DNA of 64,000 nt, taken from Minisyncoccota bacterium. Lineage in GTDB: Bacteria > Patescibacteriota > Minisyncoccia > UBA6257 > 2-01-FULL-56-20. A program made the position numbers and the translations under genes. The notes beneath the pieces are model-generated. The model did not search any database. It saw only the letters and a list, made by a program, of their open reading frames with translations, and was not told where the DNA came from. Positions 1,451-47,211 of this stretch are shown here, piece after piece. The stretch lies in the NCBI GenBank assembly GCA_025449695.1, contig JANWIW010000036.1, positions 320 to 64,319 on the forward strand, given 5' to 3'. How positions within the stretch are numbered: position 1 is the first letter of the stretch; each line of letters begins with the position of its first letter.

Positions 1451-1574
1451 GAATCTTCAAAAGAGGCCAATGAACCTTAGGCTGGTTCAAGTGTCGGAGC
1501 AACCAGGGTAGTGGGATAATGGTATGGCTAGGGTAAAATAGGACTGTCATCCTGAACGAAGCGCCCATCCACCC

Positions 1575-2294
1575 ATGGAGATATTTTCCCGATTTCCGAC
1601 CATGCATGCCGCCCTTTCCGGTAAAGGCGATGGCTCATGTCGCCTGTGGCACTCGAAGCCGGATCTCGACAAGATAACCGCCGCAAACCGTGAACGCTTC
1701 TTCGAGACGCGGAATATCGATCCGGCCCGGGTCGTAAGCGTTCTTTCCGAGCACGAAGCGAATGTCCGCGCGGTCGGACATGCCGAGGCCGGACAGGCGC
1801 TGCCGCGGACCGACGGCCTCGTCACGCGTGAGCGAGACATATATCTCTCGCTTACGGTAGGCGATTGTCTTCCGATTTACCTTCATGATCCGAAAACCGG
1901 TACGATCGGCCTTCTCCACGGAGGCTGGCGCGGGCTCGCGGCGGGCATAATCCCCGGCGGTATCGAGGCGATGCGCTCGCTCGGCGCCGCGCCGGAGGAC
2001 ATCCATGCCGCGATCGGTCCCTCCATCGGTCCCTGCCACTTCGAAGGTAAAGAAGATGTTGCTGGTGCGTTCGCGGAGTTTCCCGACGCGCATGAGGTAC
2101 GGGAAGCCAAGCCGTTCCTCGACCTGCGCGCGATCGCCCGCGACATGCTTGCGGAAAACGGCGTGCTCGCGGAGCGCATCGCGATCAGCAAAGAATGTAC
2201 GGCCTGCCTGCCGGACAAATACTTTTCCTATAGGCGCGATAAGCCGGAGTTTGTGGAAACAATGGTCGCGGTCATAGGGATTCCTGACAAGTGA
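1575..2294 (+). CDS. pgeF: YfiH/PgeF family (DUF152 laccase-domain) purine nucleoside phosphorylase / peptidoglycan editing factor
   Basis: Family-typical HGGWRG motif, conserved His/Cys positions (GPCHFEG, ECTAC) and ~240 aa length. Confidence 0.8.
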   Translation: MEIFSRFPTMHAALSGKGDGSCRLWHSKPDLDKITAANRERFFETRNIDPARVVSVLSEHEANVRAVGHAEAGQALPRTDGLVTRERDIYLSLTVGDCLPIYLHDPKTGTIGLLHGGWRGLAAGIIPGGIEAMRSLGAAPEDIHAAIGPSIGPCHFEGKEDVAGAFAEFPDAHEVREAKPFLDLRAIARDMLAENGVLAERIAISKECTACLPDKYFSYRRDKPEFVETMVAVIGIPDK

Positions 2295-2312
2295 AAGCTG
2301 TATGCGCTGTCA

Positions 2313-2380
2313 TTCCCGCGCAGGCGGGAATCCACTCCTGCGTCGCTCTGCTTGATTCCCGCCTGCGCGGGAATGACAAA
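2313..2380. repeat. 68-bp palindrome between the convergent pgeF and gyrA 3' ends
   Basis: TGTCATTCCCGCGCAGGCGGGAATC ... GATTCCCGCCTGCGCGGGAATGACA, perfect inverted arms, each itself palindromic. Probable bidirectional terminator. Shares the TGTCAT core with the CTGTCATCCTGAG elements. Confidence 0.6.
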
Positions 2381-2398
2381 GTCTGCGGTGACTGGGTC

Positions 2399-4864
2399 CT
2401 ACAATAGTACGATCGCGGCCAGCTTGTCCCCCGAGTTCAGGTTGATGAGGCGGACGCCCTGGGCAGCGCGGCCGGTTTCCCGGATGGATGCGAGCTTGGT
2501 GCGGATGATCTGTCCTTTCGCGGAGAGCGCCAGGATCTCCGTCTCCACCGTCACCGCCCGGGCGGCGATGAGCTTGCCGGCCTTCGGGGTGATGTTCGCG
2601 GTCTTGATGCCGGACCCGCCGCGGCCCTGTATCTTGTAATCCTTGAGCGGGGTCAGCTTGCCGAAGCCGTTCTCCGTGACCACGAGGAGACGGGCGGTCT
2701 TCGCCGCCTCTTCGTTCGCGGAAAGGATGTCGAAGCCTGCCACGTGGTCGCCGCCCCGGAGACGTATGGCACGGGTGCCGCCGGCAGTCCGGCCCATCGG
2801 GCGGACCTGCGCTTCCTTGAAGCGGATGGACTGTCCCTTTTCGGTCGTGAGGATCATCTCATCCTTGCCGTGGGATACCCCCACCCATTGCAGGAGATCG
2901 CCCTTCTGGAGGTTCAGCGCGATGATGCCGTTCCGGCGGATGTTCGCGAACTGGGCAAGCGAGGTTTTTTTGATGACGCCGTTCCTGGTCACCATCACGA
3001 AGTACATGGCCTCTCCCTTCTTCTCCGCGGAGGCCTGCGCCGCCGCCTTGGCTTCCTTGGCGGAGTAGGTCACGATTGCGGAAATGTTCTCGCTCTGGGG
3101 CAGCTCCAGGAAATTCTGGATGGCCCGGCCCTTGGCGGTGCGGGAGGCCGCCGGGATCTCGTAGACTTTGGTTTGGAAGGCGCGACCGCGGTCGGTGAAG
3201 AAGAGTATGTCGTCGTGGGTGGAGGCCCGGTTGAATTGGGTCAGGAAGTCCTCTTCGCCGACGTTCGATCCGATCAACCCCTTGCCGCCCCGGTTCTGCG
3301 CCGAGAAGGAGTCCGGGGGCATGCGCTTCACATAGCCTCCCGCGGAAAGGGTGATAACCGTGCTCTCCTCCGGGATCAAATCCTCGTCCTTGAACTCGCC
3401 CACCCCACCGGCCACCACCGCCGTGCGCCGCTCGTCGCCGTACTTGTCCCTCACGGCCTTCAGCTCGCCCGTGACCTGCTTCAGTATCTTGGCCGGGCTC
3501 TTGAGGAGCGCCTCCAGATCGCGGATGAGAGCCTGCTTCTCTTGCAACTCGTTGTCTATCTTCTCGCGCTCGAGGGAGGCAAGGGTCTGCAGGCGCATGT
3601 CCAGGATGGCGTTCGTCTGGAGTTCGCTAAACTTGAACTGCTTCATGAGGTTCGTGCGCGCGTCGTCGCGGTCCTTGGACTTCTTGATGGCCGCGATGAT
3701 CTTGTCTATCTGGGAAAGCGCCTTGGCCAGGCCCTCTAGGATATGGGCGCGCTCCTTAGCTTTCTTCATGTCGAATTGGGCGCGGCGCTCCACCACTACC
3801 TTCCGCCATTCGATGTACTGGGCGAGGATCTCCTTCACGGAGAGAAGCCTCGGCTCGATGCCGTTCACGAGCGCGATCATATTGAAATGAAAGTCCTTCT
3901 GGAGATTGGTGTGCTTGAAGAGCTGGTTCAAGACCCTCTGCGGCGGGACCTCGTTCTTCAGTTCCACCACCACCCGCAGGCCATCGCGATCGGACTCGTC
4001 ACGGATGTCCTTGATGCCTTCGATCTTCTTGTCGGTCACGAGCTCGGCCATCTGCTTGATGAGCTCGGCCTTGTTGACCTGGTAGGGGATCTCGGTCACC
4101 ACGATATCCATCTGGCCCTTTTTGCGCTCGGCGATGTCGGTCTTTGCGCGCATAGTCACCGCACCCTTGCCGGTGACGTAAGCCTCCTTGATCGCCTTCT
4201 TGTCGAAAATGATGCCGCCGGTCGGGAAATCCGGGCCCTTAATGAACTCCAGCAGGTCTTCGCTCGTGGCTTTCGGATTCTCCGCGAGATGGGCGATGGC
4301 GTCCGCGATCTCGCCCAGGTTGTGTGGCGGAATGGACGTTGCCATGCCGACCGCGATGCCCATGGTGCCGTTCAAGAGAAGATTCGGAAGGCGGGCGGGA
4401 ACGACCTGCGGCTCCTCGCGGGTGCCGTCGTAGTTCGGCCCCCAGGTCACGGTCTCTTTGTCTATGTCCTCCAGGAGTTCGTCCGCGATCTTCGCGAGCT
4501 TGGCCTCGGTGTAGCGCATCGCAGCCGCGCCATCACCGTCCACCGAACCGAAGTTGCCCTGGCCGGTGATCAGCGGATAGCGCAAGGAGAAATCCTGGGT
4601 CATGCGCACCATCGCGTCGTAGATGGCGGTATCGCCGTGCGGGTGGTATTGGCCCATAGTGTCGCCCACAACCTTCGCCGACTTGCGGAACTTGGCGGTG
4701 GAGGTGACGCCCGTTTCCCACATATCCCAGAGGATGCGCCGCTGGACGGGCTTCAGGCCGTCGCGCACGTCCGGAAGGGCGCGCGAGACGATGACCGACA
4801 TCGCGTAGTCGAGATAGGACTGGCTCAGTTCCGACGTGATCTCGCGTTTCTCTATATTAGACAT
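2399..4864 (-). CDS. gyrA: DNA gyrase subunit A
   Basis: N-terminus ...[23 protein letters not shown]...AAMRYTE (active-site Tyr region). Length 821 aa. C-terminal beta-pinwheel repeats present. Confidence 0.97.
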
Positions 4865-4870
4865 GGGAGA

Positions 4871-4910
4871 AGTTCCTAGTTCCTAGTTCTTAGTTGCTAG
4901 TTGTGAGTTG
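4871..4910. repeat. tandem heptamer array (AGTTCCT/AGTTCTT/AGTTGCT units) in the gyrA 5' leader
   Basis: agttcctagttcctagttcttagttgctagttgtgagttg immediately upstream of the gyrA ATG (mRNA sense AACUAGGAACUAGGAACUUCUCCC-AUG). Confidence 0.85.
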
Positions 4911-4965
4911 ACACAAACATGGGGACGAAAGCGAATTTATTCACCGTATCATCTCTCTACGCACC

Positions 4966-4998
4966 AAGAACTAAGAACTAGCAACTAGCAACTATCTA
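4966..4998. repeat. inverted-orientation heptamer array (AAGAACT units)
   Basis: caagaactaagaactagcaactagcaactat is the reverse complement of the array at 4871..4910. Together they bracket a 55-bp spacer. Confidence 0.8.
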
Positions 4999-8368: not shown

Positions 8369-8642
8369 TGCCGCGGGGGTGAATCGAACACCCGACGCCT
8401 TCCTCTTCCGAGGTTTGGACTATCTCATCTTCCCGAAGGAAGTTGGGCGCTTGTGCAGGATTATTGTTGGGACTCACCCGCTAGTCTCTACACCTTCCCC
8501 GCCACCTCTGCCCAGCGGGGCTTGGCTCGGGATTGTCCAAATATTGGAGTTTCCCCGAATTCACCCAATTATTCAATCCGCATTACTGCGGAAGGCCCCA
8601 AAGAGTACTTAGGGAAGCGCTCTGCCACTGAGCTACCGCGGC
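8369..8642 (-). tRNA. tRNA-Phe(GAA) interrupted in the anticodon loop by a group I intron (exons 8611..8642 and 8369..8408)
   Basis: 5' exon GCCGCGGTAGCTCAGTGGCAGAGCGCTTCCCT and 3' exon GAAGAGGAAGGCGTCGGGTGTTCGATTCACCCCCGCGGCA reconstitute a 72-nt cloverleaf: 7-bp acceptor stem, GTTCGATT T-arm, A73, loop CUGAAGA with anticodon GAA. The anticodon call depends on the inferred splice sites. Confidence 0.65.
8409..8610 (-). ncRNA. group I self-splicing intron (202 nt) in the tRNA anticodon loop
   Basis: Conserved group I elements read in the insert: P-like AAUUCGGGGAAAC, Q-like AAUCCCGAGCCAAGCC, R-like GUAGAGACUAGC and S-like AAGAUGAGAUAGUCC (P7 GACUA/UAGUC). The 5' exon ends in U and pairs with intron GGGG (P1 U.G). 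The intron ends in G. The 3' exon start GAAGA can pair with the P1 loop UCUUU (P10). Confidence 0.65.
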
Positions 8643-9343
8643 ATTTGAACCTGGCTTTTCAAACCGTCGATCCATCCCATGATGCGATGGTATAAAGACG
8701 TATCCGCAATTCTAATCTGAATCACCCCATAGGGCAAGCGATGAAATGGACGCTTTCTCCGGCTGGAGATGCTCACTCCTCGGTAAGTTTTCTCAAAATT
8801 CTGCAAGGGGATGCCAATCGCATTACTCCAAAATCCCTTGGCTTCTATCTCGTTGATGTGATCAAAGATACGCAGGCTCGCCTTTATCTTGTGCCTGGGA
8901 ACGCCGCAGGCATTTTCCAAAAAAATAACAAATGCCTTTGCTAGCATGGGATCGGAGTTGGTAAGACTTACCGGATGGAATGTGACCTCTTTCCCCTTCC
9001 TGATTATCGGACGCTTATATCCTTCCGCCCAGTATAACGCGGCGCCCAGTATGACCAGCTCCCAGGGAAGTAGTTGGCCAATTTCATGCGATGCTTTATT
9101 ACGGGTCGTACGAGCACGCTCAACTGCCAGTTTCGTCTGATTCCTATTGCGCTTTAATAATCCTTCTAAGGATCTACCTCTTGTCCTCTGCAAAATCCTT
9201 GTGCGCGCTGCCTCAGAAATGAGCACTCCGCTTAACCACGCAGATAGTGTCCCTTTGGAAATGGTTGGCATCGCCTGCTGTATTTCCGAATAACTTTTCC
9301 CTTGCAGTCGCAACCTAATTGCTACGTTTTTATCTGTCCTCAT
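8633..9343 (-). CDS. LAGLIDADG-type homing endonuclease-like protein with N-terminal HTH
   Basis: ILGAALYWAEGYK block resembles the single LAGLIDADG motif. N-terminal AIRLRLQGKSYSEIQQAM looks like a sigma-region-4-type HTH. The stop codon lies at tRNA nt 8-10 of the intron-containing tRNA. Confidence 0.5.
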   Translation of the reverse strand: MRTDKNVAIRLRLQGKSYSEIQQAMPTISKGTLSAWLSGVLISEAARTRILQRTRGRSLEGLLKRNRNQTKLAVERARTTRNKASHEIGQLLPWELVILGAALYWAEGYKRPIIRKGKEVTFHPVSLTNSDPMLAKAFVIFLENACGVPRHKIKASLRIFDHINEIEAKGFWSNAIGIPLQNFEKTYRGVSISSRRKRPFHRLPYGVIQIRIADTSLYHRIMGWIDGLKSQVQMPR

Positions 9344-9428: not shown

Positions 9429-9500
9429 GCCCCCGTAGTTCAATGGATAGAACTCCAGACTTCTAAGCTGGCTATGTAGGTTCGATTCCTACCGGGGGTA
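9429..9500 (+). tRNA. tRNA-Arg(TCT)
   Basis: Cloverleaf read directly: acceptor GCCCCCG/CGGGGGT, D-arm GTTC-AATGGATA-GAAC, anticodon loop CTTCTAA, T-arm GTAGG-TTCGATT-CCTAC, discriminator A. Confidence 0.85.
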
Positions 9501-9501
9501 C

Positions 9502-9572
9502 CGGGCCGTCGTATACCGGTAGTACGCCTGCTTTGGGAGCAGGTAGACTGGGTTCAATTCCCAGCGGCCCGA
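9502..9572 (+). tRNA. tRNA-Pro(TGG)
   Basis: Acceptor CGGGCCG/CGGCCCG, anticodon stem CCTGC/GCAGG, loop TTTGGGA (G37), T-arm CTGGG-TTCAATT-CCCAG. Starts 2 nt after tRNA-Arg. Confidence 0.85.
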
Positions 9573-9947
9573 CACCTGAAGACAACATCTCCAATGTCCG
9601 TGTTCTGCATGAGCCCTTCTGCCACAAGGGTTTTTTGTGATCGCGGCAAAAGTGGGCAGGAGTGACACCTTCTTGGCAGTTTAGCTTGACGGAACGGGCA
9701 TGAAGGGTAAGCTAATGGAGCTTCTGCGATGCTTGGTACCGGCATCGCCTATCGCTCGCGGCGGACTCCATCTGGCAGAGCTTAGTGCTCGGCTGCAGCG
9801 CGGGTCGGCAGTGATTCGTGGAGAAGCGGGGGTTGGTCCACGCCTTAGAGAGGGCGTGGCGCCCCTCTCTCGGCTTCACCGCCAAAGGTGCCCCATGCTG
9901 CCCCAGGCTTCCATGTCCTGGGGCTTCTTCTTTTTATAGAGTATCGG

Positions 9948-12282: not shown

Positions 12283-12545
12283 GCACTGATTGTACTAAGT
12301 ATCGCCCTCGCCGTTTGCAATTTTGAACAGATTCTCTACACTGCTACCGTTCGCGTCTTTGTCTAATTTGATCAGAGCGGCTCATTTATCCCCGGTTTGT
12401 ACGAACCTTTAACTCGTCACCAAACCGCAATCCCGCCTAAAGCGCGTCCTTAGCTCCGACGCCGCATAGCGGGTCGGAGCCCCGACCGAAGCGTCGGGGC
12501 CCAGTGCTTTAGATGAATTTGAGAACGGTAAGGCAGGCTTGGTAA

Positions 12546-12806
12546 GTGGCTTGGATATACATCTTACGGAGTGGAAATGGCAGGCTCTACTTGGGAAGTA
12601 CTTCCAACCTTCGACATAGACTACTGCACCACATGGGCGGACATACCCCCAGCACAAAGAGGCTGGGCAAGGTCGAGCTTGTATTCTCACAACAATTCTC
12701 TACACTAGCAGAAGCGAGAAAAGTCGAACGCCGCCTTAAGATGCTCAAAAGAAAAGATTACCTGGAAAAGATAATACGAGACGGAGAAGTGAAGATGCGT
12801 CCTTAG
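12546..12806 (+). CDS. GIY-YIG nuclease family protein (YhbQ/UPF0213-like)
   Basis: WIYILRS..GRLYLGSTSNLRHRLLHH matches the GIY-YIG module of small YhbQ-type proteins. The last codons overlap the 5' end of tRNA-Val. Confidence 0.7.
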   Translation: MAWIYILRSGNGRLYLGSTSNLRHRLLHHMGGHTPSTKRLGKVELVFSQQFSTLAEARKVERRLKMLKRKDYLEKIIRDGEVKMRP

Positions 12807-12870
12807 CTCAGCTGGTTAGAGCGACTCGTTTACACCGAGTAGGTCGCAGGTTCGAGTCCTGCAGGACGCA
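12797..12870 (+). tRNA. tRNA-Val(TAC)
   Basis: GCGTCCT acceptor, GCTC-AGCTGGTTA-GAGC D-arm, anticodon loop TTTACAC, GCAGG-TTCGAGT-CCTGC T-arm, discriminator A. Confidence 0.85.
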
Positions 12871-13039
12871 CTAGACATAGCGATTGACGCAGAACTCTTA
12901 AGAAGTTCACCCATAATATCTTGAGGTAGCTTGAGTTTTATATGTATTCGGTCAGGGACGGGCGTGCACATTGTTTTTGGCATGTAAATGACAGCCCGCT
13001 CGACGGCAGGCCGTCAGAGCGGGTGTTTCTGTTCTCGCG

Positions 13040-17778: not shown

Positions 17779-17921
17779 GTTTTACACCATGGCCTCCATT
17801 TTCTCGCATTTTGCCGTGTTCGGCAAACTATTGTATTTACTGCTGAGCTTGTGGGAACTCGGCGGTAAGTTATCCTGGAGAGGTTCGTCTTCACGTAGTC
17901 ATCATTTTTCATCAAACATTC

Positions 17922-19310
17922 ATGATGAGGAAACATTCCAAGATACTGTCTATAGCGCTCGCGGCCGTCACGCTCGCCGGCATTGCGCCGGCGGTCGTCT
18001 ATGCCGCGCCGCCTTCACCTGTCGCCACTATCGCCGGCCCGGCGTGCGTGCTTTTCCCCCGTAACCTGACGATGGGCATGCAGGGCGAGGACGTACGCGG
18101 GCTCCAACAGTTCCTAAACTCCCATGGGTTCGCCGTCGCAGCCTCCGGTCCCGGCTCCGCCGGAGCGGAAACCACGCTTTTCGGGGCGAGGACGCGTCAG
18201 GCGCTCGCCGGGTTCCAGCGCGTGAACGGGATCTCGCCCCCCGCCGGATACTTCGGCGCGATCAGCCGGGCCAAAGTGTCTGTGCTCTGCATGGGCGCAT
18301 CGGTCTCCGGCTCCGGGCAGGGCCTCACGACCACGATCACCCCGCTTCCTCCGGCGGCCAAAGCCGGCATAGGCGGCGCGAACGGCGTTGCCTTCACCCC
18401 GACCGTAGTAACTCCGCCGCCTTCCACGGTGGTGACCCCTCCGGCGACAGCAGCGGCGGTCCCGGCAGGCTCCATCGCGCCCCAGAGCGTTGTCGGCGTG
18501 TTGTGCACCTACCGCTGGGGCAATCGCACCCAGCTCATGAAGGGCTCCGGCGTCATCGTGAGCTCGCAAGGCTACGTCCTGACCGCGCGCCATATCGTAG
18601 ACCCGCGCTGGACCTACGATGTCTATCAAAGCACGCTGAACGCTGAACAGCGGGATATGTACATGAACGCCGTCCTTGATCACTGCGAGATCGGCCTGCC
18701 GGAACAGGGTACAGCCTTACCGGGCGGCGGCGACATCCGCCGGCTGAACCCCGGCACGTTGATCACCGGCCATTTCCAGTACCGGGCGGAGCCGTACTTC
18801 CTGCCGGGCCGCAACGGCCTTTCCGCAAGCGAGTACAACACTGCGGATTTCGCCGTACTCAAGGTGAGCGGTCCCGTGCCCAACTGCTCCTCCTGGAACC
18901 GGGAGTGTAACCTGGCGGGCGCCTTCCCTTACACGCCGGTCATGACGACCCCCCTGCCTGCGGCGGCGAGCGATGAGATCTTGAGCTACGGGTACCCCTC
19001 CACGCCGGGCGTGAACGATGCGGCCTCGAACTTCATGGCTTTCTATTTGAAAGGCGCCGTCGGCACGGTAGGAATGTATCTCTCCGGCGACCAGCGCTTC
19101 GCGGGCATGCCCATGAATTTCTCTTTCGATGCCCAAGATATCCATAATGGGCGCTCCGGCTCCCCCATCTTCCATCGCGGCAAGGTGGTGGGCATCCTGT
19201 ACGGGTCTACCTCGAGCCAGCAGTCCTTCAACCTGAGCATGCCGGCCATCATGGCCATACTGAAGGACGCGGGCCTGGACTCCGTGGCGTCATTTTCTCT
19301 GTCATCCTGA
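17922..19310 (+). CDS. secreted trypsin-like (S1 family) serine protease with N-terminal peptidoglycan-binding domain
   Basis: Signal peptide. PG_binding_1-like LTMGMQGEDVRGLQQFLNSHGF...RTRQALAGFQ. Catalytic triad contexts GYVLTARHIV (His), DFAVLKV (Asp), NGRSGSPIF (Ser). Confidence 0.7.
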   Translation: MMRKHSKILSIALAAVTLAGIAPAVVYAAPPSPVATIAGPACVLFPRNLTMGMQGEDVRGLQQFLNSHGFAVAASGPGSAGAETTLFGARTRQALAGFQRVNGISPPAGYFGAISRAKVSVLCMGASVSGSGQGLTTTITPLPPAAKAGIGGANGVAFTPTVVTPPPSTVVTPPATAAAVPAGSIAPQSVVGVLCTYRWGNRTQLMKGSGVIVSSQGYVLTARHIVDPRWTYDVYQSTLNAEQRDMYMNAVLDHCEIGLPEQGTALPGGGDIRRLNPGTLITGHFQYRAEPYFLPGRNGLSASEYNTADFAVLKVSGPVPNCSSWNRECNLAGAFPYTPVMTTPLPAAASDEILSYGYPSTPGVNDAASNFMAFYLKGAVGTVGMYLSGDQRFAGMPMNFSFDAQDIHNGRSGSPIFHRGKVVGILYGSTSSQQSFNLSMPAIMAILKDAGLDSVASFSLSS

Positions 19311-19331
19311 GGTATTCCGAAGGATGACAGC
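19299..19331. repeat. CTGTCATCCTGAG palindromic element, overlapping the stop codon of the protease gene
   Basis: CTGTCATCCT-GAGGTATTCCGA-AGGATGACAG. It encodes the terminal ...LSS-stop. Followed by two more hairpins (19340..19388). Confidence 0.7.
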
Positions 19332-26364: not shown

Positions 26365-26374
26365 GTTTTTATCA

Positions 26375-26794: not shown

Positions 26795-26935
26795 TAACCA
26801 TCCTGTCCGATTCGGCTTATATGGAGGACCTGCGGCAGAAGATGGCGAATGTGCTCGCTGCCTGAAAATGTCGGTTCTGTCGAAAATGACAGACCCCACG
26901 TGAACGTGAAGTCCGTCGTGGGGTAATAGTTACAG

Positions 26936-27886: not shown

Positions 27887-28038
27887 GATCTATCCTTTCC
27901 GGGTTTTCAACCCTGCTTTTCTGCACACATCTTACCCTAAAGTTTCTATGTTGTCAATAATTTGTATACAGCTTTGTAGTATTGTTTTTACTACACTATC
28001 CGTGTAAAAATGAGATTGTTGTAAGATTGTTTTTACAC

Positions 28039-30487: not shown

Positions 30488-30609
30488 AGTCTAATTTTTC
30501 ACGCAAATCTGTAAATTTTCTTATTACAGCGCGGCCACAATTTGACAATAAAACCAATAAAATCTATGTTTATTAGTATCTTCTGTGTAAGTAACTAACT
30601 TACGACTTT

Positions 30610-31389
30610 ATGAACAAGATTGAAGAAATCCTTAAAAACCTTGAGTTGAACGAGAACGAGCGAAAGATCTTCTTAGCTTCTCTGCGCATCGGCTTGGCCC
30701 CAATAAGCCAGGTGGCACGCGAGGCCGGCCTTGGCAGGACATATGCCTATGAGCTGGTGGAGCAGTTGAAAGAAAAAGGTCTGCTCGCTGAAACTGAGGA
30801 GAAGGGTGTGCGAAAAATAGAAACTCTCGACTATGAAGGGGTCTTGGCCTATATCGGCCGGAAGCAGCGGGATATGGAGATCGTGGCAAGAGCCCTGATA
30901 AGGTCGGAGAAGGATTTCAAGGCTGCCCGCGCGGGGGTTCCGAGCAAGACGAAGGTTCGCTTTTTTGAAGGAGTCGAAGGAATAAAGAGCATCAACTCAG
31001 AAATCAGGAAAGACCTTGAAAAGCTGCGCCATCCCTATAAGTTTCACGTTGTGTTTTCGGCAGATCGCATGGAATCTGTCCTGCCGGGATGGATAGAACA
31101 GAACCAGCACATTTATTATGAACCCCACATGCGGAAGTACGCGATTGTAAGCGGGACCCCCTTGCTTCAAAAATTCATGGAGCAGGTACGGAACCGCGAA
31201 CAAAGAAATTTCTTTTCTAAAATATGGCCGAGCAGTAAAACTGAGTTCCCCACCGACACCTTGTGCTGGTTAGATAAGTTGGCCTATCTTGATATGGAAG
31301 GTCATCCTTCGGGCATAATTATCCAAAACAAGGCTATCGCGGACACCTTCGTAATGTGGTTCGAGCAGATGTGGACCAGCTTACGCTAG
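30610..31389 (+). CDS. TrmB-family transcriptional regulator (paralog 3 of 3)
   Basis: ERKIFLASLRIGLAPISQVAREAGLGRTYAYELVEQLKEKGLL wHTH. RFFEGVEGIKS C-domain. Confidence 0.7.
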   Translation: MNKIEEILKNLELNENERKIFLASLRIGLAPISQVAREAGLGRTYAYELVEQLKEKGLLAETEEKGVRKIETLDYEGVLAYIGRKQRDMEIVARALIRSEKDFKAARAGVPSKTKVRFFEGVEGIKSINSEIRKDLEKLRHPYKFHVVFSADRMESVLPGWIEQNQHIYYEPHMRKYAIVSGTPLLQKFMEQVRNREQRNFFSKIWPSSKTEFPTDTLCWLDKLAYLDMEGHPSGIIIQNKAIADTFVMWFEQMWTSLR

Positions 31390-31396
31390 TGCCTAT

Positions 31397-31801
31397 CTAC
31401 GACCAAAGAGAGAACTTCTTGGTCAGTTCATCAAGCGTACTTTTCTCCCCAACAATGCAGATGCCATAATACTCTAGTTCCAGCTCAGGGGTATCCTTGG
31501 ATCGCTCAACTTGCTCTTCCCATCCTCCAACTGTCATGGCGCTAGTAAACGACGCGAAAGGAATGCCTTTCTCGACACAAACATTACGAAGCGCCCGTAT
31601 CTTGTTGGAGTTATCGGCCCGGAGAATGATGTAAGGCCACTTCGAGGCCATGTGCATGCCTCCATCCTTGTCTGCATAGCTTATGACGCCCATATCAACT
31701 TCTGGATGCGAGTTCACTAGGCCCACTGTCATGTGAGCTAAGGCGTTCATTATTTTACCTGTTTCAATCTTCTTATTTAGAACGGCGACGAATTTAGTCA
31801 T
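31397..31801 (-). CDS. DUF2000-like small protein (134 aa), last gene of the AT-rich operon
   Basis: MTKFVAVLNKKIETGKIMNALAHMTVGL resembles the start of DUF2000 family proteins. Recalled from memory, not verified. Confidence 0.4.
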   Translation of the reverse strand: MTKFVAVLNKKIETGKIMNALAHMTVGLVNSHPEVDMGVISYADKDGGMHMASKWPYIILRADNSNKIRALRNVCVEKGIPFASFTSAMTVGGWEEQVERSKDTPELELEYYGICIVGEKSTLDELTKKFSLWS

Positions 31802-31825
31802 GATGATGTAGGTTCTTTGAGAAGT

Positions 31826-32959
31826 TTAGGGCATAGTTGGTATGAAATCGGCATCATCGAATGGATAGTAGCGATTTACGTAAACATTGTTCACAACAAT
31901 TTTTCCTTCTGTCTGTATATACTGCAAAGATATCTTCAGTTTTTTTTCTTCGTCTGCTCCGCGCATGCTTCTCATAAAGCCCGATTCGTAAGCGGTAACT
32001 CTGTTATAGATCAACCCCTTTTCACGCTCTTGAGTTTTACGTTGGATTACCTTGAGGCCTACATCAACATTAAAGATTCCTGGAGAATCTTCGCGGATAT
32101 CGAGTATGTTAAGTCCTAGAAAATCATATCCTCCTTTTACTAATTGGTCATCGGCAGTCTCTCCGAAAAAACTCATTTGTGTTCTAGATGCGTGCGCCCA
32201 AAAGTTATCTCTGCCTGGGCTTGTGACCAAAAGAGTATTTACCTGTAGCATAATTTCTCCGATTTTCCTTTTTATCTCATCTTCAACTAATGAGTGCTTT
32301 CTTTTCAACTCAAGATTTAAAACCAATTCTTTATCCAGATATTCTTTTAATTCGGGCAGGGTGCTCAAGATAGTAAGGCTGTTCTTTGAAAAAACTGCGA
32401 ATTCTTGGCTCAATTCGTCTACTTTAAAATCTTCTGTGTTATTTGTACAAAAAATATAGTGGCTTTCTTTATTCTCCTTAACATCGGCAAGAATAGTGAG
32501 CCAAATAAGCGTATCTTTAAATCCTTTGTCTCCTTTGTTTGCGAATGGAGGTATGTGACGCAGAGATCTTTCGACTAAGTCCTTGGTAGGAATTGTCGGC
32601 AGAGGAAGCAATGCTATATCGTTAGCCTTCAAAAACTTTGTTCCCTCTTCGCGCAAAGCTTTTTCCACATCACGTTCTGAGAGTTCTATCTTGTCCTCTT
32701 TCGTAGTAAATGGCTTCAGCTTTTCAACAGCATCTTCATGTTTTGCAATCACTGCCTGTACAACATCAAATCTCTGGGCAACTCTCTCTTCCAGGACTAC
32801 CGTGGGAACTTTAACCTCTACATTGCTCTTAAGATCGTTCTCATCTAGAAATGATAAAAGATCTTCAAAAGATGTGTTGAATATCTGGTCTAGTTTCTCC
32901 TCTCTGTCACGCCACAAAAAATTAGTATCCAGTACGACATTGAATTTCTTTTTATTCAT
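31826..32959 (-). CDS. PIN-like nuclease-domain protein (DUF4935-like N-terminus) with unknown C-terminal domain
   Basis: N-terminal VVLDTNFL...E...D...D acidic tetrad pattern of PIN-like folds. 377 aa. About 35% GC. Confidence 0.5.
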   Translation of the reverse strand: MNKKKFNVVLDTNFLWRDREEKLDQIFNTSFEDLLSFLDENDLKSNVEVKVPTVVLEERVAQRFDVVQAVIAKHEDAVEKLKPFTTKEDKIELSERDVEKALREEGTKFLKANDIALLPLPTIPTKDLVERSLRHIPPFANKGDKGFKDTLIWLTILADVKENKESHYIFCTNNTEDFKVDELSQEFAVFSKNSLTILSTLPELKEYLDKELVLNLELKRKHSLVEDEIKRKIGEIMLQVNTLLVTSPGRDNFWAHASRTQMSFFGETADDQLVKGGYDFLGLNILDIREDSPGIFNVDVGLKVIQRKTQEREKGLIYNRVTAYESGFMRSMRGADEEKKLKISLQYIQTEGKIVVNNVYVNRYYPFDDADFIPTMP

Positions 32960-32976
32960 GGTTTATCTAAGGATTA

Positions 32977-33690
32977 CTATGGAGTTCGCATTGCCCCTCC
33001 TTGATGCAAATTGATGTGCATGAATCTTTCTTCCTCCACGGAAATTGTACGACTTCTAAAGACATCTTCGATAACAAAATTCTTTGTATTGAAATCTTCT
33101 TGAAATTTTTTGGCGTAGAAATTTCTCAAAATGAAACCTATAAACATATTGGGGGTAATTGGAGAGCATAGAGGAAGACGACAATCTGCATATTGAGAAA
33201 TATGAAGATGACTTCTGGGATGAGCCATATTAACAAAGCTGTGAGGCGCGTAATCAAATCTCAGGGGGACTGGTAGCTCTACCATTGCAAGCGCCGAGCT
33301 TTCACCGGAAATATCTTCATTATCAACATCCAATTCGGCTTTTGGAATATAGCAAAGCCGATGTCCAAGAAGATCATTTCCATTGAACTGGTACATCATT
33401 TGCACCAAGGCTCCATCAAAAAGCTCGAAGTTATAGTTCTTTACTTTTATCAAAGCCTTATAAGCCTCCGCATAAGGAATGCCGCCCAACAAAGGCCCCA
33501 AAGAGGACTGTCCTGCCCAGGTTATCTCAATTTGACGCCCGTTCTGGCGAGCACTTGGAAAGTTCTGATTTACAACCCATCCTTTACCAATCAAATCTTC
33601 TGTTATCTTCTTAATCTCCTTAATAACTGCGGTGGGGGTGCTAGATATCCTCATCACCAAGAAATATTTTTTTAAGTTGTTCGCGAACAT
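32977..33690 (-). CDS. hypothetical protein (237 aa) translationally coupled to the upstream helicase
   Basis: Overlaps the helicase 3' end by about 50 nt. No recognisable motif; a DUF2290-type partner is only a guess. Confidence 0.45.
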   Translation of the reverse strand: MFANNLKKYFLVMRISSTPTAVIKEIKKITEDLIGKGWVVNQNFPSARQNGRQIEITWAGQSSLGPLLGGIPYAEAYKALIKVKNYNFELFDGALVQMMYQFNGNDLLGHRLCYIPKAELDVDNEDISGESSALAMVELPVPLRFDYAPHSFVNMAHPRSHLHISQYADCRLPLCSPITPNMFIGFILRNFYAKKFQEDFNTKNFVIEDVFRSRTISVEEERFMHINLHQGGAMRTP

Positions 33691-35740
33691 CAGGATCTAT
33701 ATTTTCAAATCTAATTTTTTCCTCATTTAGGTCTTGAATCAACTTTATTAAGTTTTTGTTGCTTCGATCTATCTCTCTATGTTCGTCTGTTGTTTTCTCG
33801 CGATTAAGAACGTTAATCTTTTCCATTGCCTTAAGGGTTGGGTACGTAAAATCCAATGTAAAGTTATTGGTCTTAACTTGCTCAAACTCTTCTATTAACA
33901 TATCCATCTTTGGCCCTACTCCATAGACTCTAACCCAGGCCTTGCTACGCGTCATCGCTGTAAAAAGAATATTTCTTCGCTTTATTATATCGGACCCAAT
34001 ATAAACATATTCTGCGTTGAGAACGTAAACCATTGGGGCTTCGTTCCCTTTCACACGATGAATACCAGAAAGTGTTACAGAATTGTCTTGGTAAAATTCA
34101 TCGCGAGAACTTGTAACTCCTACTATATGAGAATTTATTTTTTTCTTAAAAAGAATTTCAGATAATGGACCTAAGGCTTGAGGAGTAATAAAAGGGTCTG
34201 CGTTAATTACCACGATATCTCTAGTTTGAAGCTCTTCCTTTCTTAAGTTTTTTATAATCTCTTCCGCAACTGATTGAATTTGCTCGGTGTTATTTTTAAA
34301 AGTCTTAAAGACTATAATATCCTCTGCCGGAGAATGTTCTTGAAGAAAGATTGGGCTCGTATCATTAGTACGCTTAAGCCTTACTTTCCTACCATATCCC
34401 AAATCACCACTTTCCACTTGATATCCAATATCTCGCCACAAGGATGGATCATCGAACATCTGGACGAGACCTTCTTGGCGATATATTCCGAAACCTAGAG
34501 CATGGGCAGTTACCAGTACGGGGGCAGAATTTCTATAGCACTTCTCAAGAATAATGTCTTCTTTCGGTTTGTTTGGCTCATTATGAAGCTCGCGCCCCAA
34601 AACTTCTTTCGTGCTGCGCATCGAGGCTTCGTTTAACTTCTGAAGTTCATCGTAAGCCCAAATCAACCTTTTCGGTTTTCTCAATATTGCATAGCAAAGC
34701 TTAAGAAAAGAATCTGAAAAATCTTGCGCTTCATCAATTAGAATAGCGTCATATGTCTCTCTGAACTCATTTTTTTGCTCTAGCGCTTTACTGCAAACTA
34801 AGTCAAATTTATCTCTTCCCCAAGAAGCTGACTCCTTTGAAGTTCGTACATCCATGAACGAAATCCCGTTGTTTACACATATTTCAAAATAGATTCCCGG
34901 AGAACTTGCGCTTCCCCAGGCATGAAGTATCTTCACTTTTTCCCAGTCAGGCTCTTCGTTTTTTTGTTCAATTGTGAACTTAGTTATCAGATCCTTGAAC
35001 TGTCCTTTCAAGGATCTGGAGCTAAATGTTACAGCTATATTCCAATCGGGATGGGTCGAATGCAAGTAAGCAGCTTTTAATGCCAGGATGATGGTTTTTC
35101 CAGAACCTGCTAATCCTCTAATCCTCTGGGGACCCTCTGCGCTCTCAATCACAGCCGCACTCTGATGTCTGTCTAAATTCGCAATTGAATTCTCTAGGTT
35201 TCTAACTTTTGCTCCGCGAGAGTCGCTTTTTACAGTTTCCGGACGCTTTATACCTGCTCTCAATTTCGTAACCGCCTGTACTACAGAAACAAGATGCCTA
35301 AATGTGGTTTCTGACACAGGAACAAGCGTCGAAGACAAAAGGTCGCGCAATCCATCATTGTTTAAAAGTATGTCGGGATCAAGATTGGCCTGGCGACAGC
35401 CAGGTGCATAAGTAACTACATTGACTTCAACCTTCAACTTCCTTTTATCAACTAATTCTTTGTACTGAAGAAGCTTAGCATTTAAGTTATTGTATATTTC
35501 ATCCCTTTTCTGTAGATGATCACTTTGAATGCTGTCTCCCTCTACCAAGTCGAATACTACAAGGCCGTATTGGTTCGAAACGAACATCGCATCTAAAACC
35601 AATGCCCCATTGGGGGTCCCTACGATTGGATAGCCGGTGTACAGTATGCCGCTCAAATCAGCAGACCTACTTCTGAAATAGTCCAACAGTAATCCCGTAG
35701 ATACAGGCTTGGTGTTCGACCCATTGATGACCTCAACCAT
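33641..35740 (-). CDS. superfamily-1 helicase (UvrD/Rep-like ATPase core) with NERD-like N-terminal domain
   Basis: Walker A GLAGSGKT, Walker B ILIDEAQD, motif VI MTRSKAWVRVYG. N-terminal YPIVGTPNGALVLDAMFVSNQYGLVVFDL resembles the NERD nuclease-related domain. Confidence 0.8.
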   Translation of the reverse strand: MVEVINGSNTKPVSTGLLLDYFRSRSADLSGILYTGYPIVGTPNGALVLDAMFVSNQYGLVVFDLVEGDSIQSDHLQKRDEIYNNLNAKLLQYKELVDKRKLKVEVNVVTYAPGCRQANLDPDILLNNDGLRDLLSSTLVPVSETTFRHLVSVVQAVTKLRAGIKRPETVKSDSRGAKVRNLENSIANLDRHQSAAVIESAEGPQRIRGLAGSGKTIILALKAAYLHSTHPDWNIAVTFSSRSLKGQFKDLITKFTIEQKNEEPDWEKVKILHAWGSASSPGIYFEICVNNGISFMDVRTSKESASWGRDKFDLVCSKALEQKNEFRETYDAILIDEAQDFSDSFLKLCYAILRKPKRLIWAYDELQKLNEASMRSTKEVLGRELHNEPNKPKEDIILEKCYRNSAPVLVTAHALGFGIYRQEGLVQMFDDPSLWRDIGYQVESGDLGYGRKVRLKRTNDTSPIFLQEHSPAEDIIVFKTFKNNTEQIQSVAEEIIKNLRKEELQTRDIVVINADPFITPQALGPLSEILFKKKINSHIVGVTSSRDEFYQDNSVTLSGIHRVKGNEAPMVYVLNAEYVYIGSDIIKRRNILFTAMTRSKAWVRVYGVGPKMDMLIEEFEQVKTNNFTLDFTYPTLKAMEKINVLNREKTTDEHREIDRSNKNLIKLIQDLNEEKIRFENIDPDVREQLKKIFLGDEDI

Positions 35741-36163
35741 TTGCTACAGTACACATCATTTATCCTCAACTTGCAAGAATCGCATTTACATGCACGGTAT
35801 CTTGAGGAAGCAGAATTCGTAGCTAAGGTTATGACCTCTAACGTTCTCCTCGGTATAAGCGCAAATACCGCGCAATACTCAAGGATTAGGCTCCTCGTGG
35901 CAGGCGCAACTTTGTTGCTTTGCCTTGAAGTCCTGTCCATTTCGCCTGCCCATTTAAGTGCTTACCAGCGAAAACATGGAAAGCGAAATTTCCTTGTAAA
36001 GCCTAGAAATGTGCTCCGTTTCGCTTTCCACTCTTTGGAAATGGGTAACGCCTCATCGCCCGCTTTTATTGGTCGTACAAGTAAGAGGTCTGTCCCATCC
36101 CGCTTAAAACTGTATAGCGAAAAAGATTACAAAACTTATTAGTAATTTAATTTTGCTATACCT

Positions 36164-36664
36164 TTAGTTTTCTTTCAGTTTCACAAGTGCCGCGTCTTTC
36201 ATGGTTGTGCTGTTCGTTTGTACCGATTGGAACAGTGTCCCAATAATAGACTTGGCATCCGCAGCATTTTGTACATTACTTTTCTGGAACAACTCCACAA
36301 TTACAGGAACAACCTCTCGGAAGTTCTCTCGGGTAATTTGGGTTGCCTTAGCAAGCAATTCGACCACTTCTGAGGTGCTATCTACATCTTTGCCAAGAAC
36401 AGAGTACAGTGGACCGAAACCCACAGCGACTTCCTCAAAGTTCAATCCTGTAAGATTTGATATATCATTTATTTTTGCCTCGGCTCGTTCCACTTCTTCG
36501 GCGGTCATCCCCGTTCTGCCTTGAAGCGTAGCTATGGCTTCTTGGCGCTGTGCCGCTCCGACAAATCCCCAGATCAAGAACGCCACCACCGCTAACAAGA
36601 TTATTCCAGTGATGATCCGGTGACGGCCAAACCAGTTCGTAGTTTTTGTATTTTCTTTATCCAT
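36164..36664 (-). CDS. membrane-anchored hypothetical protein
   Basis: Start at MDKENTKTT. One TM helix (IITGIILLAVVAFLIWGFVGAA), then a soluble domain. Confidence 0.4.
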   Translation of the reverse strand: MDKENTKTTNWFGRHRIITGIILLAVVAFLIWGFVGAAQRQEAIATLQGRTGMTAEEVERAEAKINDISNLTGLNFEEVAVGFGPLYSVLGKDVDSTSEVVELLAKATQITRENFREVVPVIVELFQKSNVQNAADAKSIIGTLFQSVQTNSTTMKDAALVKLKEN

Positions 36665-36765
36665 TATTTTATTTTGGCTTAATTTGAATCTACGGTAGCG
36701 GCGACCTTGTAGCAAAAAACCCGCCACCAGTTGGCCTTTCGGCCTGCAGGAGTTTCCCCCTGCAA

Positions 36766-36806
36766 CGCAAGACGCGTCCCTGATGACGGGATCTTTGCGT
36801 CTTGCG
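36766..36806. repeat. 41-bp hairpin in the divergent intergenic region (CGCAAGACGC ... GCGTCTTGCG)
   Basis: 10-bp perfect stem with a structured loop. It sits where GC content shifts. Candidate operator or recombination site. Confidence 0.5.
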
Positions 36807-36906
36807 ATTTTGAGCCATGCCGTGCAGTCTTCCGCATCGGTTTAGGCTATCCAGCCGTATGTAGTTGTATTCAAATCCTATAGTGTTCCCGCGCTATAAT
36901 CAACGC

Positions 36907-37623
36907 ATGGGAATTGCTCCAATTAAGCTGAATACCGGCCTGGAAATGGAGTTCCTGCGCTGTTGCAAAAGAGAATCGTTCCAAAAGGAGGTCATGGAGC
37001 AGCGTAAGTTGTTGAACATTCCAGGCCAAGGTTTCGAATCCGCTGAGAAGTTTCTAATCCAACAGCTCTTAACTGCGAAATTAGTTGATGTGAACCAGAA
37101 ATACAAGAACTTGAACAAAGGAGCTGCTGAGATTTGTGAAAAACTAGGGTTGCCCATGTATCTGAACAATTTAGTAGAGGCCTATATGGTGCTTGGAGAT
37201 GGATTTAGGGAGTACACATACAACTCTTTTTGGTCTACGGAGGCCGGGTGTCAAATAGACAGCTTAGGAGCGCTAAGAATTGTAAAAATTTATCCTGGAG
37301 CCTCCCGACCGCGAGTACTTAAGTTTATAAATAAAAATTGGGAGATCCTTGCAGGAGGACCTACGTTCAAACAGAGAAATCAGCCCAAGTCGAAACAGCT
37401 TCGTAAACGGCCCAGGGAGGAGAGGGATGAGAAGATATATAAATACTATAAGGCCGGGCTGGTTAGGTATGATGGAAGACCGAATATAAAGAACATCCAG
37501 GAGTTAGTTAAGAAGCCCAACGACAGATTTGTCGGGTTAAAAGATGTAGATCCATTCTTCGCAAGTATGAGAACGGATACTATCCGCAACATTATCAAGA
37601 TCCAGCGCAAGAGACAGCGTTAG
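36907..37623 (+). CDS. hypothetical protein (238 aa), Lys/Arg-rich C-terminus
   Basis: ATG directly after a TATAAT box (possibly leaderless). No recognisable motif. Confidence 0.4.
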   Translation: MGIAPIKLNTGLEMEFLRCCKRESFQKEVMEQRKLLNIPGQGFESAEKFLIQQLLTAKLVDVNQKYKNLNKGAAEICEKLGLPMYLNNLVEAYMVLGDGFREYTYNSFWSTEAGCQIDSLGALRIVKIYPGASRPRVLKFINKNWEILAGGPTFKQRNQPKSKQLRKRPREERDEKIYKYYKAGLVRYDGRPNIKNIQELVKKPNDRFVGLKDVDPFFASMRTDTIRNIIKIQRKRQR

Positions 37624-37792
37624 GAATCTGTCTGGGGGACGTTAATCAGGTTCAAATAAGCAGCCTTCACGGCTACTCTTATTACTTTAAACTCGGCCTT
37701 AAAGGTCGAGATGGAACACAACGAACAAACAATTGAAGATGTTCTCGAAGAGCTGGCTCAACAGCTCGCGGACATCTTTATCGAACAAATAG

Positions 37793-38125
37793 ATGAAAAG
37801 TGCAAAACAGAAGATGAAACGCGAGATACTCCCATCTGACGCTGGAAGGCCAATGTCCGAAGAGGAAAAGGTAGGCTATCTCCAAAACTTGAATCCAATA
37901 TTGCGCACTATCGTTGAGGTGGGAGAGGCTATTCTTTCCTACCAGCCTTTTGTGCCTGTGGCCAACGATAGAGTAATTGGCGACTTGGATGAATTCCTTT
38001 TGCGGCAAAATATCTCCGAGGGATTCGAAAGCCTGGGAGCAGCCTACCGTGAGATCTCAACCAAATGCATGCTCCTGGCGGCGGCAGTAAATCTCTACAC
38101 AGACTACATAATTGATGAAGAGTAG
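37793..38125 (+). CDS. hypothetical protein (110 aa)
   Basis: Overlaps the next ORF. No motif. Confidence 0.3.
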   Translation: MKSAKQKMKREILPSDAGRPMSEEEKVGYLQNLNPILRTIVEVGEAILSYQPFVPVANDRVIGDLDEFLLRQNISEGFESLGAAYREISTKCMLLAAAVNLYTDYIIDEE

Positions 38126-46329: not shown

Positions 46330-46400
46330 AAAGGGACGCTGGTGGGCGTCCCTTCGTTTGAATCCTTCGCCGGGCCCCTAAAGGGACTTCCTGCGGTCGC

Positions 46401-47021
46401 TCAGGATGACAGAGGAGCTGATTTTTTGGTTACTTCGTTCTTCTTCACGATGCCGTCGATCAAGCCGTACTTCACGGACTCGTCCGCGGTCAGGAAGTAA
46501 TCGCGGTCGGTGTCCTTCTCGATCTTCTGGAGCGGCTGTCCGGTGTGCCTGGCGAGGATCTGGTTCAGGCGGTCTTTCATCTTCAGGATCTGCCGTGCGC
46601 CTATTTCAATCTCCGTGGCCTGTCCGCCGATGCCCTCAATCATGACCTGGTGGATCAGAATCTCCGAGCTCGGCAACGCGAAGCGGCGCCCTTTGGCCCC
46701 TGCGGCGAGAAGCACCGCGCCCATAGAGGCGGCGAGTCCCACGCATATCGTGGACACCTCGGAGCGGACGTACTGCATCACGTCGTAGATCGCGAGGCCG
46801 GCCGTGACCGAGCCTCCCGGCGAATTGATGTAGAGCTTGATCTCTTTCTTCGGATCCTCGTATTCAAGGAAGAGCAACTGCGCCATGACGTTGTTCGCGA
46901 GCTGATCGGTGATCGGCCCCCCGAGGAAGATGATGCGTTCCTTCAAGAGGCGCGAGTAGATGTCATAAGCGCGCTCGCCGAACTGGGATTTCTCGATTAC
47001 GGTCGGGATCAGGTATTCCAT
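46401..47021 (-). CDS. clpP: ATP-dependent Clp protease proteolytic subunit
   Basis: Ser-His-Asp catalytic context ([14 protein letters not shown], ...HQ...), about 200 aa. The terminal LSS-stop is supplied by a CTGTCATCCTGAG repeat copy. Confidence 0.95.
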
Positions 47022-47025
47022 GGGG

Positions 47026-47058
47026 TAGTTTTTAGTTTCAAGTTTTTAGTTGCGAGTG
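47026..47058. repeat. tandem heptamer array in the clpP 5' leader
   Basis: tagtttttagtttcaagtttttagttgcgagtg (mRNA sense AACUAAAAACUUGAAACUAAAAACUACCCC-AUG). Confidence 0.85.
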
Positions 47059-47126
47059 GGGAAGCGACATGGCCCACCGCACTATGGTATAGGATTGGCA
47101 ATCAAATGGCAAGATTGCCAATTCCC

Positions 47127-47211
47127 TGTCATCCTGAGTGCAGCGAAGGACCTTCTGTGTTTGGGAGAAAAGAAGGTCCTTCGCCCGCCTGCTGGCGGTC
47201 TCAGGATGACA
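47127..47211. repeat. 85-bp palindrome of the CTGTCATCCTGAG family between hppA and clpP
   Basis: TGTCATCCTGAGTGCAGCGAAGGACCTTCT ... AGAAGGTCCTTCGC..CTCAGGATGACA. Nested inverted arms. Preceded by the TTGGCAAGATTGCCAA hairpin. Confidence 0.75.

Follow-up and report, generated by a model that had tools for sequence, protein, structure and literature searches.

The 64-kb window analyzed here (Minisyncoccota bacterium, assembly GCA_025449695.1, contig JANWIW010000036.1, positions 320 to 64,319) contains dispersed copies of a palindromic repeat that carries the 13-mer CTGTCATCCTGAG. These copies are probably the arms of palindromic elements without an open reading frame (ORF), of a class that partners Ssn-type single-domain GIY-YIG nucleases acting on single-stranded DNA (ssDNA). 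Two of the copies have rewritten the ends of genes, i.e. those of a secreted trypsin-like protease and of clpP. The window is part of an 85.9-kb contig.

Copies of the repeat in the window

The CTGTCATCCTGAG sequence is found as an exact match at positions 19299–19311(+), 46400–46412(-) and 47126–47138(+), and is absent from 100 dinucleotide-preserving shuffles of the window. With up to two mismatches there are seven matches, compared with 1.34 expected and a maximum of four in the shuffles. The inexact matches include 1544–1556 (CTGTCATCCTGAA), 19318–19330(-) and 47200–47212(-); a CTGTCATCCTGAG-like match at 21374–21386 is within a coding sequence and looks like a chance occurrence. The 8-mer head TGTCATCC is present six times where none is expected, and every one of these heads is at one of four loci (Table 1). 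A previous reading of this DNA, made from the sequence only, had proposed a dispersed palindromic repeat family, and these six heads bear it out.

Each copy is either intergenic or overlaps the end of a gene. Arm ends are located 15 nucleotides (nt) past the stop codon of the H+-pyrophosphatase (PPase) gene, 13 nt past that of a PgeF-like gene and 20 nt past that of gyrA, and two arms coincide with the stop codons of the protease and clpP genes. The position at gene ends, which had also been claimed, is thus confirmed as being at or within ~20 nt of stop codons. The CTGTCATCCTGAG copies are all ORF-less. One is intact, one is a minimal hairpin and two are decayed.

The intact element is the only complete two-arm CTGTCATCCTGAG locus and is upstream of a clpP promoter-like site at 47112–47084(-). 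Its left arm, 47127–47152(+), is TGTCATCCTGAG-TGCAG-CGAAGGACC and its right arm, 47175–47211(-), is TGTCATCCTGAG-ACCGCCAGCAGGCGGG-CGAAGGACC; a C follows the stem in both. The predicted ssDNA folds of the two strands have energies of -34.2 and -34.9 kcal/mol (z -11.4 and -10.8). The left arm is identical at 23 of 25 positions to arms that adjoin ssnA-like genes (see below).

The copy at the end of the protease gene is the minimal hairpin CTGTCATCCT-gaggtattccga-AGGATGACAG, which can also be read as an arm, TGTCATCCTGAG-GTATTC-CGAAGGAT (DNA fold -10 kcal/mol, z -5.2). A similar minimal form, TGTCATCCT...AGGATGACA, adjoins a GIY-YIG gene on a Spirosoma plasmid. Directly 5′ of the protease copy is the sequence CGTCATTTTCT, a possible but uncertain partial head. 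Tandem partial heads are found in copies from Planktothrix and from viral contigs.

The clpP copy consists of TGTCATCCTGAG, a 30-nt insert and CGAAGGATT-C, and displays no significant fold (z +0.5). The fourth copy, CTGTCATCCTGAACGAAGCG, retains the head and the first part of the loop and lacks the 3′ half. It is 12 nt upstream of the ATG of the Cu-oxidase_4 / PgeF-like gene (1575–2294), is identical at 18 of 20 positions to arms beside ssnA-like genes, and does not fold (z -0.2). With respect to the previous coordinates, the loci were correctly placed, but the large element is 87 nt and not 85 nt in length, the clpP copy is a single arm that reaches to ~46360, and the copy at 1544 is a truncated arm of 20 nt with one mismatch.

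Gene ends supplied by the element

The protease ORF, which has Trypsin_2 and PG_binding_1 domains, ends with ...SFSLSS*, where the TGA is at 19308–19310. The clpP sequence ends with ...KKSAPLSS*, and its TGA is at 46403–46401. The ORF ends therefore show, as had been reported, that both unrelated genes finish with the codons CTG TCA TCC TGA (LSS*). That these codons are supplied by the element and not by ancestry had been proposed as well, and a comparison of C-termini upholds it.

ClpP homologs assign the window to the Patescibacteria. The closest two ClpP orthologs (93% and 92% identity) end with ...NEVVKKA* and ...NEVVKKS*, five codons earlier than the window ClpP. There is no element in the PPase-clpP or clpP-tyrS spacers of the locus that encodes the 93% relative (L202), nor in either spacer of an 82% relative (L001) with the synteny PPase-clpP-tyrS. 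The -10 region and the start of tyrS remain alignable in relatives that lack the element. All 12 protease homologs compared (39%–58% identity) display a conserved tail resembling ...[IVF]L[AKR]-TQ*, and none of the 12 ends with LSS. The window protease leaves the homolog alignment after ...DSV, a point that coincides with positions 19288–19298, and ends with ASFSLSS*.

Because the ClpP orthologs and the protease homologs end otherwise, and the spacers of the clpP relatives are without the element, the insertions have replaced or extended native gene ends. The insertion sites of the window copies are spacers, immediately past stop codons, and are empty in relatives. In two cases the insertion overlapped or replaced the end of the gene itself; translation enters the head and stops at its TGA, which gives ...LSS*.

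Similar gene ends are found in the family at large. Among the matches listed in the metagenomic scan described below, 18 of 295 heads (6%) provide, with their TGA, the stop of an open frame of 150 codons or more, where the frames are ORFs only. A long-frame stop is located within -10 to +30 nt of 17.6% of heads vs. 3.4% of random positions. Thus the ...LSS* ends of the protease and ClpP are instances of a recurrent by-product. There is no frame preference for the TGA of the head, as the frames of at least 100 codons that enter the head number 38, 45 and 44.

Link to SsnA-like GIY-YIG nucleases

A literature text search for GTCATTCCCGC led to a study of Neisseria (Chenal et al. 2025, Nat Commun, PMC11893778). 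The Neisseria NTS motif, CGTCATTCCCGCGMAVGCGGGAATCYRG, forms a hairpin that is bound and cut in ssDNA by SsnA, a single-domain GIY-YIG protein. The cut falls just 5′ of the folded hairpin; cleavage is dependent on the 3 nt 5′ of the palindrome, and binding on the C after the palindrome (PMC11893778). SsnA does not bind RNA. NTS-like sequences, termed Ssn-related motifs (SRM), flank ssnA homologs in many phyla (PMC11893778).

The arms described here have an NTS-like grammar, TGTC-AT-stem...stem-AT-C, with the general form TGTCATYCTGAR. An annotated GIY-YIG gene (18126–18407) of a Planktothrix agardhii plasmid has TGTCATYCTGA elements on both flanks (Table 1). Its protein shows 48% identity (E-value = 2e-28) to the gonococcal SsnA ortholog, which is the sole match in the gonococcal genome and sits between canonical NTS copies.

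Eighty metagenomic loci were picked by protein alone, these being 56%–82% relatives of the Planktothrix GIY-YIG protein. A head is found within 400 bp of the ssnA-like gene at 59 of these loci and on both sides of it at 39. The density of heads is 2.76 per kb near the gene vs. 0.11 per kb far from it, a 25-fold excess. At 27 of the 60 loci that could be evaluated, the gene is nested between two outward arms, in units of 361–584 bp. When flanking 8-mers are counted with no motif supplied, the commonest are TGTCATTC (40 of 80 loci), CATTCTGA and GAAGAATC. In a control with a different GIY-YIG clade, a head is near the gene at only one of 80 loci.

The arms at the protein-picked loci also show the properties of hairpins. 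Perfect 4-nt complementary stems are displayed by 174 of 218 arms, compared with a mean of 46 and a maximum of 64 after shuffling. There are nine covarying stem types (TTCT/AGAA, 76 arms; TCCT/AGGA, 48; TGCT/AGCA, 17; CCCT/AGGG, 13; and others), and a C follows the stem in 196 of the 218. Further stem variants with the same grammar are found around GIY-YIG genes on Spirosoma and Rhizobium plasmids.

The CTGTCATCCTGAG family is a further hairpin/nuclease pair, of the kind of system described in 2025. The published SRM search pattern, HGTCWYN(0-2)YYVSBRHN(0-5)WNVSBRGN(0-2)RNCYNB, misses this large sub-family, although the motif class may already stand in the supplementary data of PMC11893778.

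The palindrome between the convergent stop codons of the PgeF-like gene (2294) and gyrA (2399) is of a related type. It had been noted previously as beginning at 2313; it is present but begins at 2308. It is an inverted pair of canonical NTS-type arms with a 21-nt spacer and a fold of -34.3 kcal/mol (z -12.4). The core is the published NTS, GTCATTCCCGCGMAVGCGGGAATC, and the core GTCATTCCCGCGCAGGCGGGAATC is identical in both arms. The arm at 2308–2335 fits the published SRM pattern, for which 0.26 matches are expected per window. The motif of this pair was known, and the host is new.

A composite element is found in an uncultured bacterium (L194, positions 2785–2862), where an TGTCATCCTGAACTTGGTTTAGGATC arm is joined with an inverted NTS arm (GTCATTCCCGCGAAGGCGGGAATC). 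Thus arms of different stem types can pair in one element. Only ~80 nt separate the composite from a downstream GIY-YIG gene, which belongs to the clade of window gene #1 (Table 1).

The repeat family beyond the window

A scan of IMG/VR with the pattern TGTCATCCTGAG-N3–30-CGAAGGAT gives at least 120 stretches. The CTGTCATCCTGAG family is large, uniform and very widespread, and metagenomic DNA abounds in its two-arm copies that lack a gene. Among the matches listed, the commonest inner spacer is the 5-nt CGNAG, with further classes of 14, 16 and 20 nt, and 64 heads have an inverted partner 54–275 nt away. The paired build is TGTCATYCTGAG-loop-CGAAGRATC...GATYCTTCG-loop-CTCAGRATGACA, as in the intact window element. 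Within-arm covariation is again present in these matches (TTCT/AGAA 55, TTCC/GGAA 11, TCCC/GGGA 9, TTTC/GAAA 9, TGCT/AGCA 5), and 274 of 303 arms have the C after the stem. One element can hold both a T-type and a C-type arm. Target-site duplications of 4 nt or more are found at none of the 73 full elements among the matches listed, and shorter repeats are at chance level.

A plasmid BLAST search with a 71-nt element gives no record at an E-value of 0.01 and 16 records at 10. Solid copies are present in Planktothrix (Cyanobacteriota) and a close variant in Spirosoma (Bacteroidota), with weaker matches in Hymenobacter, Phocaeicola, Granulicella and Nostoc. A literature text search for GTCATCCTGAG returned unrelated primer matches only.

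At the ends of the Planktothrix plasmid elements, partial heads are repeated in tandem, with three units of TGTCATTCTGAG plus 11 nt. The window sequence CGTCATTTTCT may parallel these. Several full Planktothrix elements are inside an annotated 4.7-kb MmeI-type coding sequence of a DISARM locus and are apparently read through in frame.

Proposed explanation and alternatives

In the proposed explanation each arm is tripartite, with an oriented head, (C/T)GTC, then a hairpin with a stem that begins at the AT of GTCAT (ATCCT...AGGAT) and encloses a variable inner mini-hairpin, and finally a C after the stem. Elsewhere, two outward arms enclose an ssnA-like gene in a unit of ~360–580 bp. The short elements would be two arms minus the gene, in the way that a miniature inverted-repeat transposable element (MITE) relates to its insertion sequence (IS). 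A cognate Ssn nuclease, coded elsewhere in the genome, would recognise the arms and cleave them in ssDNA, and this activity may underlie the spread of the arms or limit recombination of incoming DNA as in Neisseria. Cleavage and mobility of the window arms are thus suggested by analogy. A more specific and quite tentative proposal is that the TGTCATYCTGAG...CTCAGRATGACA elements are non-autonomous derivatives of a ~370-bp cassette, consisting of two hairpin arms and a 90-amino acid GIY-YIG gene, that is spread by the ssDNA-specific nuclease without target duplication in several phyla including Patescibacteria.

Several observations weigh against a nuclease partnership of the window copies. There is no SsnA-clade gene with these arms in the 64 kb, and none for the NTS pair either; both GIY-YIG genes of the window carry different flanking modules. 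The published SRM pattern fits no CTGTCATCCTGAG arm of the window and none of the 80 ssnA-like gene flanks. Among the matches listed, none of 120 motif-bearing viral-contig loci (1.1 Mb) encodes a GIY-YIG protein, so that most copies have no nuclease gene in their vicinity; the link between arm and nuclease is visible only in protein-first and not in motif-first searches. Both arms of the intact element have AGGAC where AGGAT would pair, which gives A-C mismatches at the base of the stem. The clpP arm is followed by T instead of the usual C, the copy at 1544 is truncated, and the imperfect window copies may include non-substrates. The nuclease biochemistry is that of SsnA and NTS and would apply only by analogy to the sub-clade with CTGTCATCCTGAG arms. 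We know of no Ssn protein that moves DNA.

The system of NTS/SRM and SsnA (PMC11893778) shares with the present family the oriented GTCAT head, the hairpin that starts from the AT, the C after the stem and the many dispersed copies. Flanking of the nuclease gene on both sides is seen at 49% of the loci here vs. 42% in that study, the partner protein and the gonococcal SsnA ortholog share 48% identity, and the 2308–2378 pair carries the NTS core itself. Unlike NTS, the CTGTCATCCTGAG family has the stem and loop ATCCTGAG...CGAAGGAT, with G-A mismatches and an inner hairpin that is of the GCGNAGC type or longer. The SRM pattern fails on it, most of its copies lack a gene and consist of a compact two-arm palindrome, and the host is a genome of the Patescibacteria, i.e. 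the Candidate Phyla Radiation (CPR).

The Neisseria dRS3 repeats have the sequence ATTCCC-N8-GGGAAT (PMC11893778). The arms of the 2308–2378 pair contain the dRS3 sequence ATTCCCGCGCAGGCGGGAAT and are likewise intergenic, between convergent genes. However the host is unrelated, there is one inverted pair and no larger mosaic array, and the CTGTCATCCTGAG copies are without dRS3.

It is also conceivable, with somewhat less likelihood than a chance of one in three would imply, that the window copies are inert, decaying footprints that nothing recognises, and that their present effect is confined to altered protein ends and residual folding. This is plausible because two of the four loci have decayed to a lone or truncated arm with no fold. 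The mismatches at the base of both stems of the intact element and the lack of a cognate gene in 64 kb point the same way, as do a syntenic relative (L001, 20.6 kb) with no copy and 746 kb of CPR-type loci with only three heads. However the NTS pair at 2308–2378 is perfect over 25 of 25 nt and the inner stem of the intact element over 14 of 14 nt, which argues for recent origin or maintenance. In addition, the 64 kb seen are only a portion of the 85.9-kb contig.

It appears improbable that the elements act mainly in RNA, where selection at gene ends would have favored them as terminators or as hairpins that stabilise the 3′ end. Five of six gene-proximal arm ends are 0–20 nt from a stop codon, a strong RNA fold is expected of intact copies, and CTTTTC follows the stem of the protease copy. 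However scans for the intrinsic terminator consensus flag none of the window elements, and no Rfam family is found at their positions in the window. The mRNA 3′ hairpin that had been predicted is not seen at clpP, where the lone arm does not fold, and is not supported as a terminator at any copy. Where stems are imperfect, T-G wobbles do not outnumber C-A mismatches, and the fold is equally strong on either strand, which argues for DNA rather than RNA as the form that matters. The lack of RNA binding by SsnA (PMC11893778) also stands against this role.

The sequence-only reading had described the behaviour of the repeat as like that of a repetitive extragenic palindromic (REP) sequence or a MITE. 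This fits a dispersed palindromic repeat near stop codons, but the GTAG head, the gene for a REP-associated tyrosine transposase (RAYT) and the target-site duplication (0 of 73) are lacking. Elements of the REP/REPIN type, spread by a RAYT, i.e. an IS200/IS605-type Y1 transposase, are very improbable. The two families have in common short, dispersed extragenic palindromes, often as inverted pairs and beside stop codons, without target-site duplications; in both, two repeats also enclose the gene for a small single-domain nuclease, and numerous orphan copies act in trans. The conserved head is however TGTCAT and not GT[AG]G, and the gene between the arms encodes a nuclease of the GIY-YIG and not the HUH/Y1 fold. 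A RAYT probe gives no match in the window and none in the 120 motif-bearing loci listed, a weak negative since the probe is an approximate E. coli sequence.

Classical MITEs, moved by a DDE transposase with TGTCAT...ATGACA terminal inverted repeats as its recognition sites, can be given hardly any credence. The TG...CA termini and the inverted-repeat build resemble the ends of IS3, IS21 and Tn7-type elements, which would favor such an origin. Also as in MITEs, there is a longer unit with a gene, and there are short copies without one that have the same two ends; the short copies are dispersed in many lineages. However no direct repeat of 4 nt or more flanks any of the 73 full elements. Covariation is inside each arm, as in a hairpin, and not between arms, and T-type and C-type arms occur in one element; the ends are self-folding hairpins and not simple transposase-binding repeats. 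The nested gene is ssnA-like, a nuclease with no known strand-transfer activity, and there is no transposase between the arms. Arms that partner an Ssn-type nuclease remain the preferred explanation of the CTGTCATCCTGAG copies.

Other GIY-YIG genes and side features of the window

Two single-domain GIY-YIG genes in the window were considered as the cognate nuclease and rejected. Gene #1 has its own flanking module and no TGTCAT arms, and a head is near the gene at only one of 80 loci of its clade. Gene #2 has other hairpins and likewise no TGTCAT arms. Relatives of the window GIY-YIG genes adjoin tRNA genes.

The gene #1 cassette (26387–26796) is bounded by a 23-nt direct repeat, GGGTCAGGAATACGCTCGTATAA (26387–26409 and 26774–26796). 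Two perfect hairpins centred on GCTNAGC, at 26737–26753 and 26758–26774, precede the gene. This two-hairpin module directly follows the 3′ end of a tRNA in 80 homologous loci, mostly of the CPR, and some loci of this type repeat the tRNA end or the hairpins downstream. The cassette seems to represent a separate family of GIY-YIG cassettes with tRNA genes as targets. Gene #1 is included in a low-GC island at ~26000–38000 (GC 0.39–0.51 vs. ~0.59 elsewhere), which may have been acquired horizontally. A LOOT RNA at 36733–36848(-) (Rfam, 72.7 bits) is also within the island.

The stop codon of gene #2 (TAG) is inside a tRNA-Val gene (12797–12871). The first 13 nt of this tRNA, GCGTCCTTAGCTC, are duplicated at 12443–12455, and the duplicate is followed by two hairpins, CTCCGAC...GTCGGAG and CCCCGAC...GTCGGGG. 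The region 12443–12871 resembles a cassette that has entered the tRNA gene at its 5′ end and regenerates the tRNA terminus.

A 35-nt imperfect inverted repeat (74% complementary) is found at 50693–50772, just past the ORF 49328–50701. Its arm, GTCATTGTTCTA...TAGAACAAT, has a loose likeness to the GTCAT-hairpin grammar, but a T follows. A group I intron at 8399–8620(-) (Rfam, 68.6 bits) adjoins an ORF at 8633–9343(-), and tRNA genes are at 9429–9573. TAGTT-rich repeats, e.g. AGTTCCTAGTTCCTAGTTCTTAGTT, are present at 4871–4994, 47030–47060 and 56822–56896, i.e. directly upstream of gyrA, of clpP and at a third site. These may be a shared leader or promoter-region motif.

Table 1. Coordinates of repeat copies, associated genes and GIY-YIG genes (window positions unless a plasmid is named)
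Feature	Position	Strand	Remarks
Intact two-arm ORF-less element	47126–47212	.	87 nt
Inverted repeat, outer	47127–47138 / 47200–47211		12 nt, 100% complementary
Inverted repeat, inner (nested in outer)	47143–47156 / 47171–47184		14 nt, 100% complementary
Lone arm	46360–46412	-	head codes clpP end
Minimal hairpin	19299–19330	+	holds protease stop TGA
Partial head candidate	19288–19298	+	directly 5′ of protease copy
Truncated arm	1544–1563	+	head and loop start
NTS-type inverted pair	2307–2379	.	arms 2308–2332 (+) and 2354–2378 (-)
Inverted repeat TGTCATTCCCGCGCAGGCGGGAATC	2308–2332 / 2354–2378		25 nt, 100% complementary
TGTCATCC heads	1545; 19300, 19329; 46411; 47127, 47211	+; +, -; -; +, -	
Secreted trypsin-like protease gene	17922–19310	+	last codons element-derived
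clpP	46401–47021	-	C-terminal extension APLSS* read from junction and element head
GIY-YIG gene #1, single-domain	26416–26688	-	40% identity to gonococcal SsnA
GIY-YIG gene #2, single-domain	12546–12806	+	32% identity to gonococcal SsnA
Planktothrix agardhii plasmid elements, NZ_LR882964.1 (L204)	17873–18082, 18455–18720, 19980–20161, 21657–21850		

Significance

A widespread metagenomic repeat is now linked to a protein partner that is directly testable. The nested units of arm, gene and arm, together with the gene-less copies, offer a good system for determining whether Ssn nucleases spread their own repeats. For annotation, ...LSS* tails and small ORFs that run across such repeats are best read as element-derived. 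Small hairpin elements of this kind are a concrete and general route by which the C-termini of conserved proteins such as ClpP are altered. If the cassette proposal is true, few known autonomous mobile units would be as small as the arm-gene-arm cassette, which would also rewrite protein C-termini as a matter of routine, since ~6% of heads give a stop codon.

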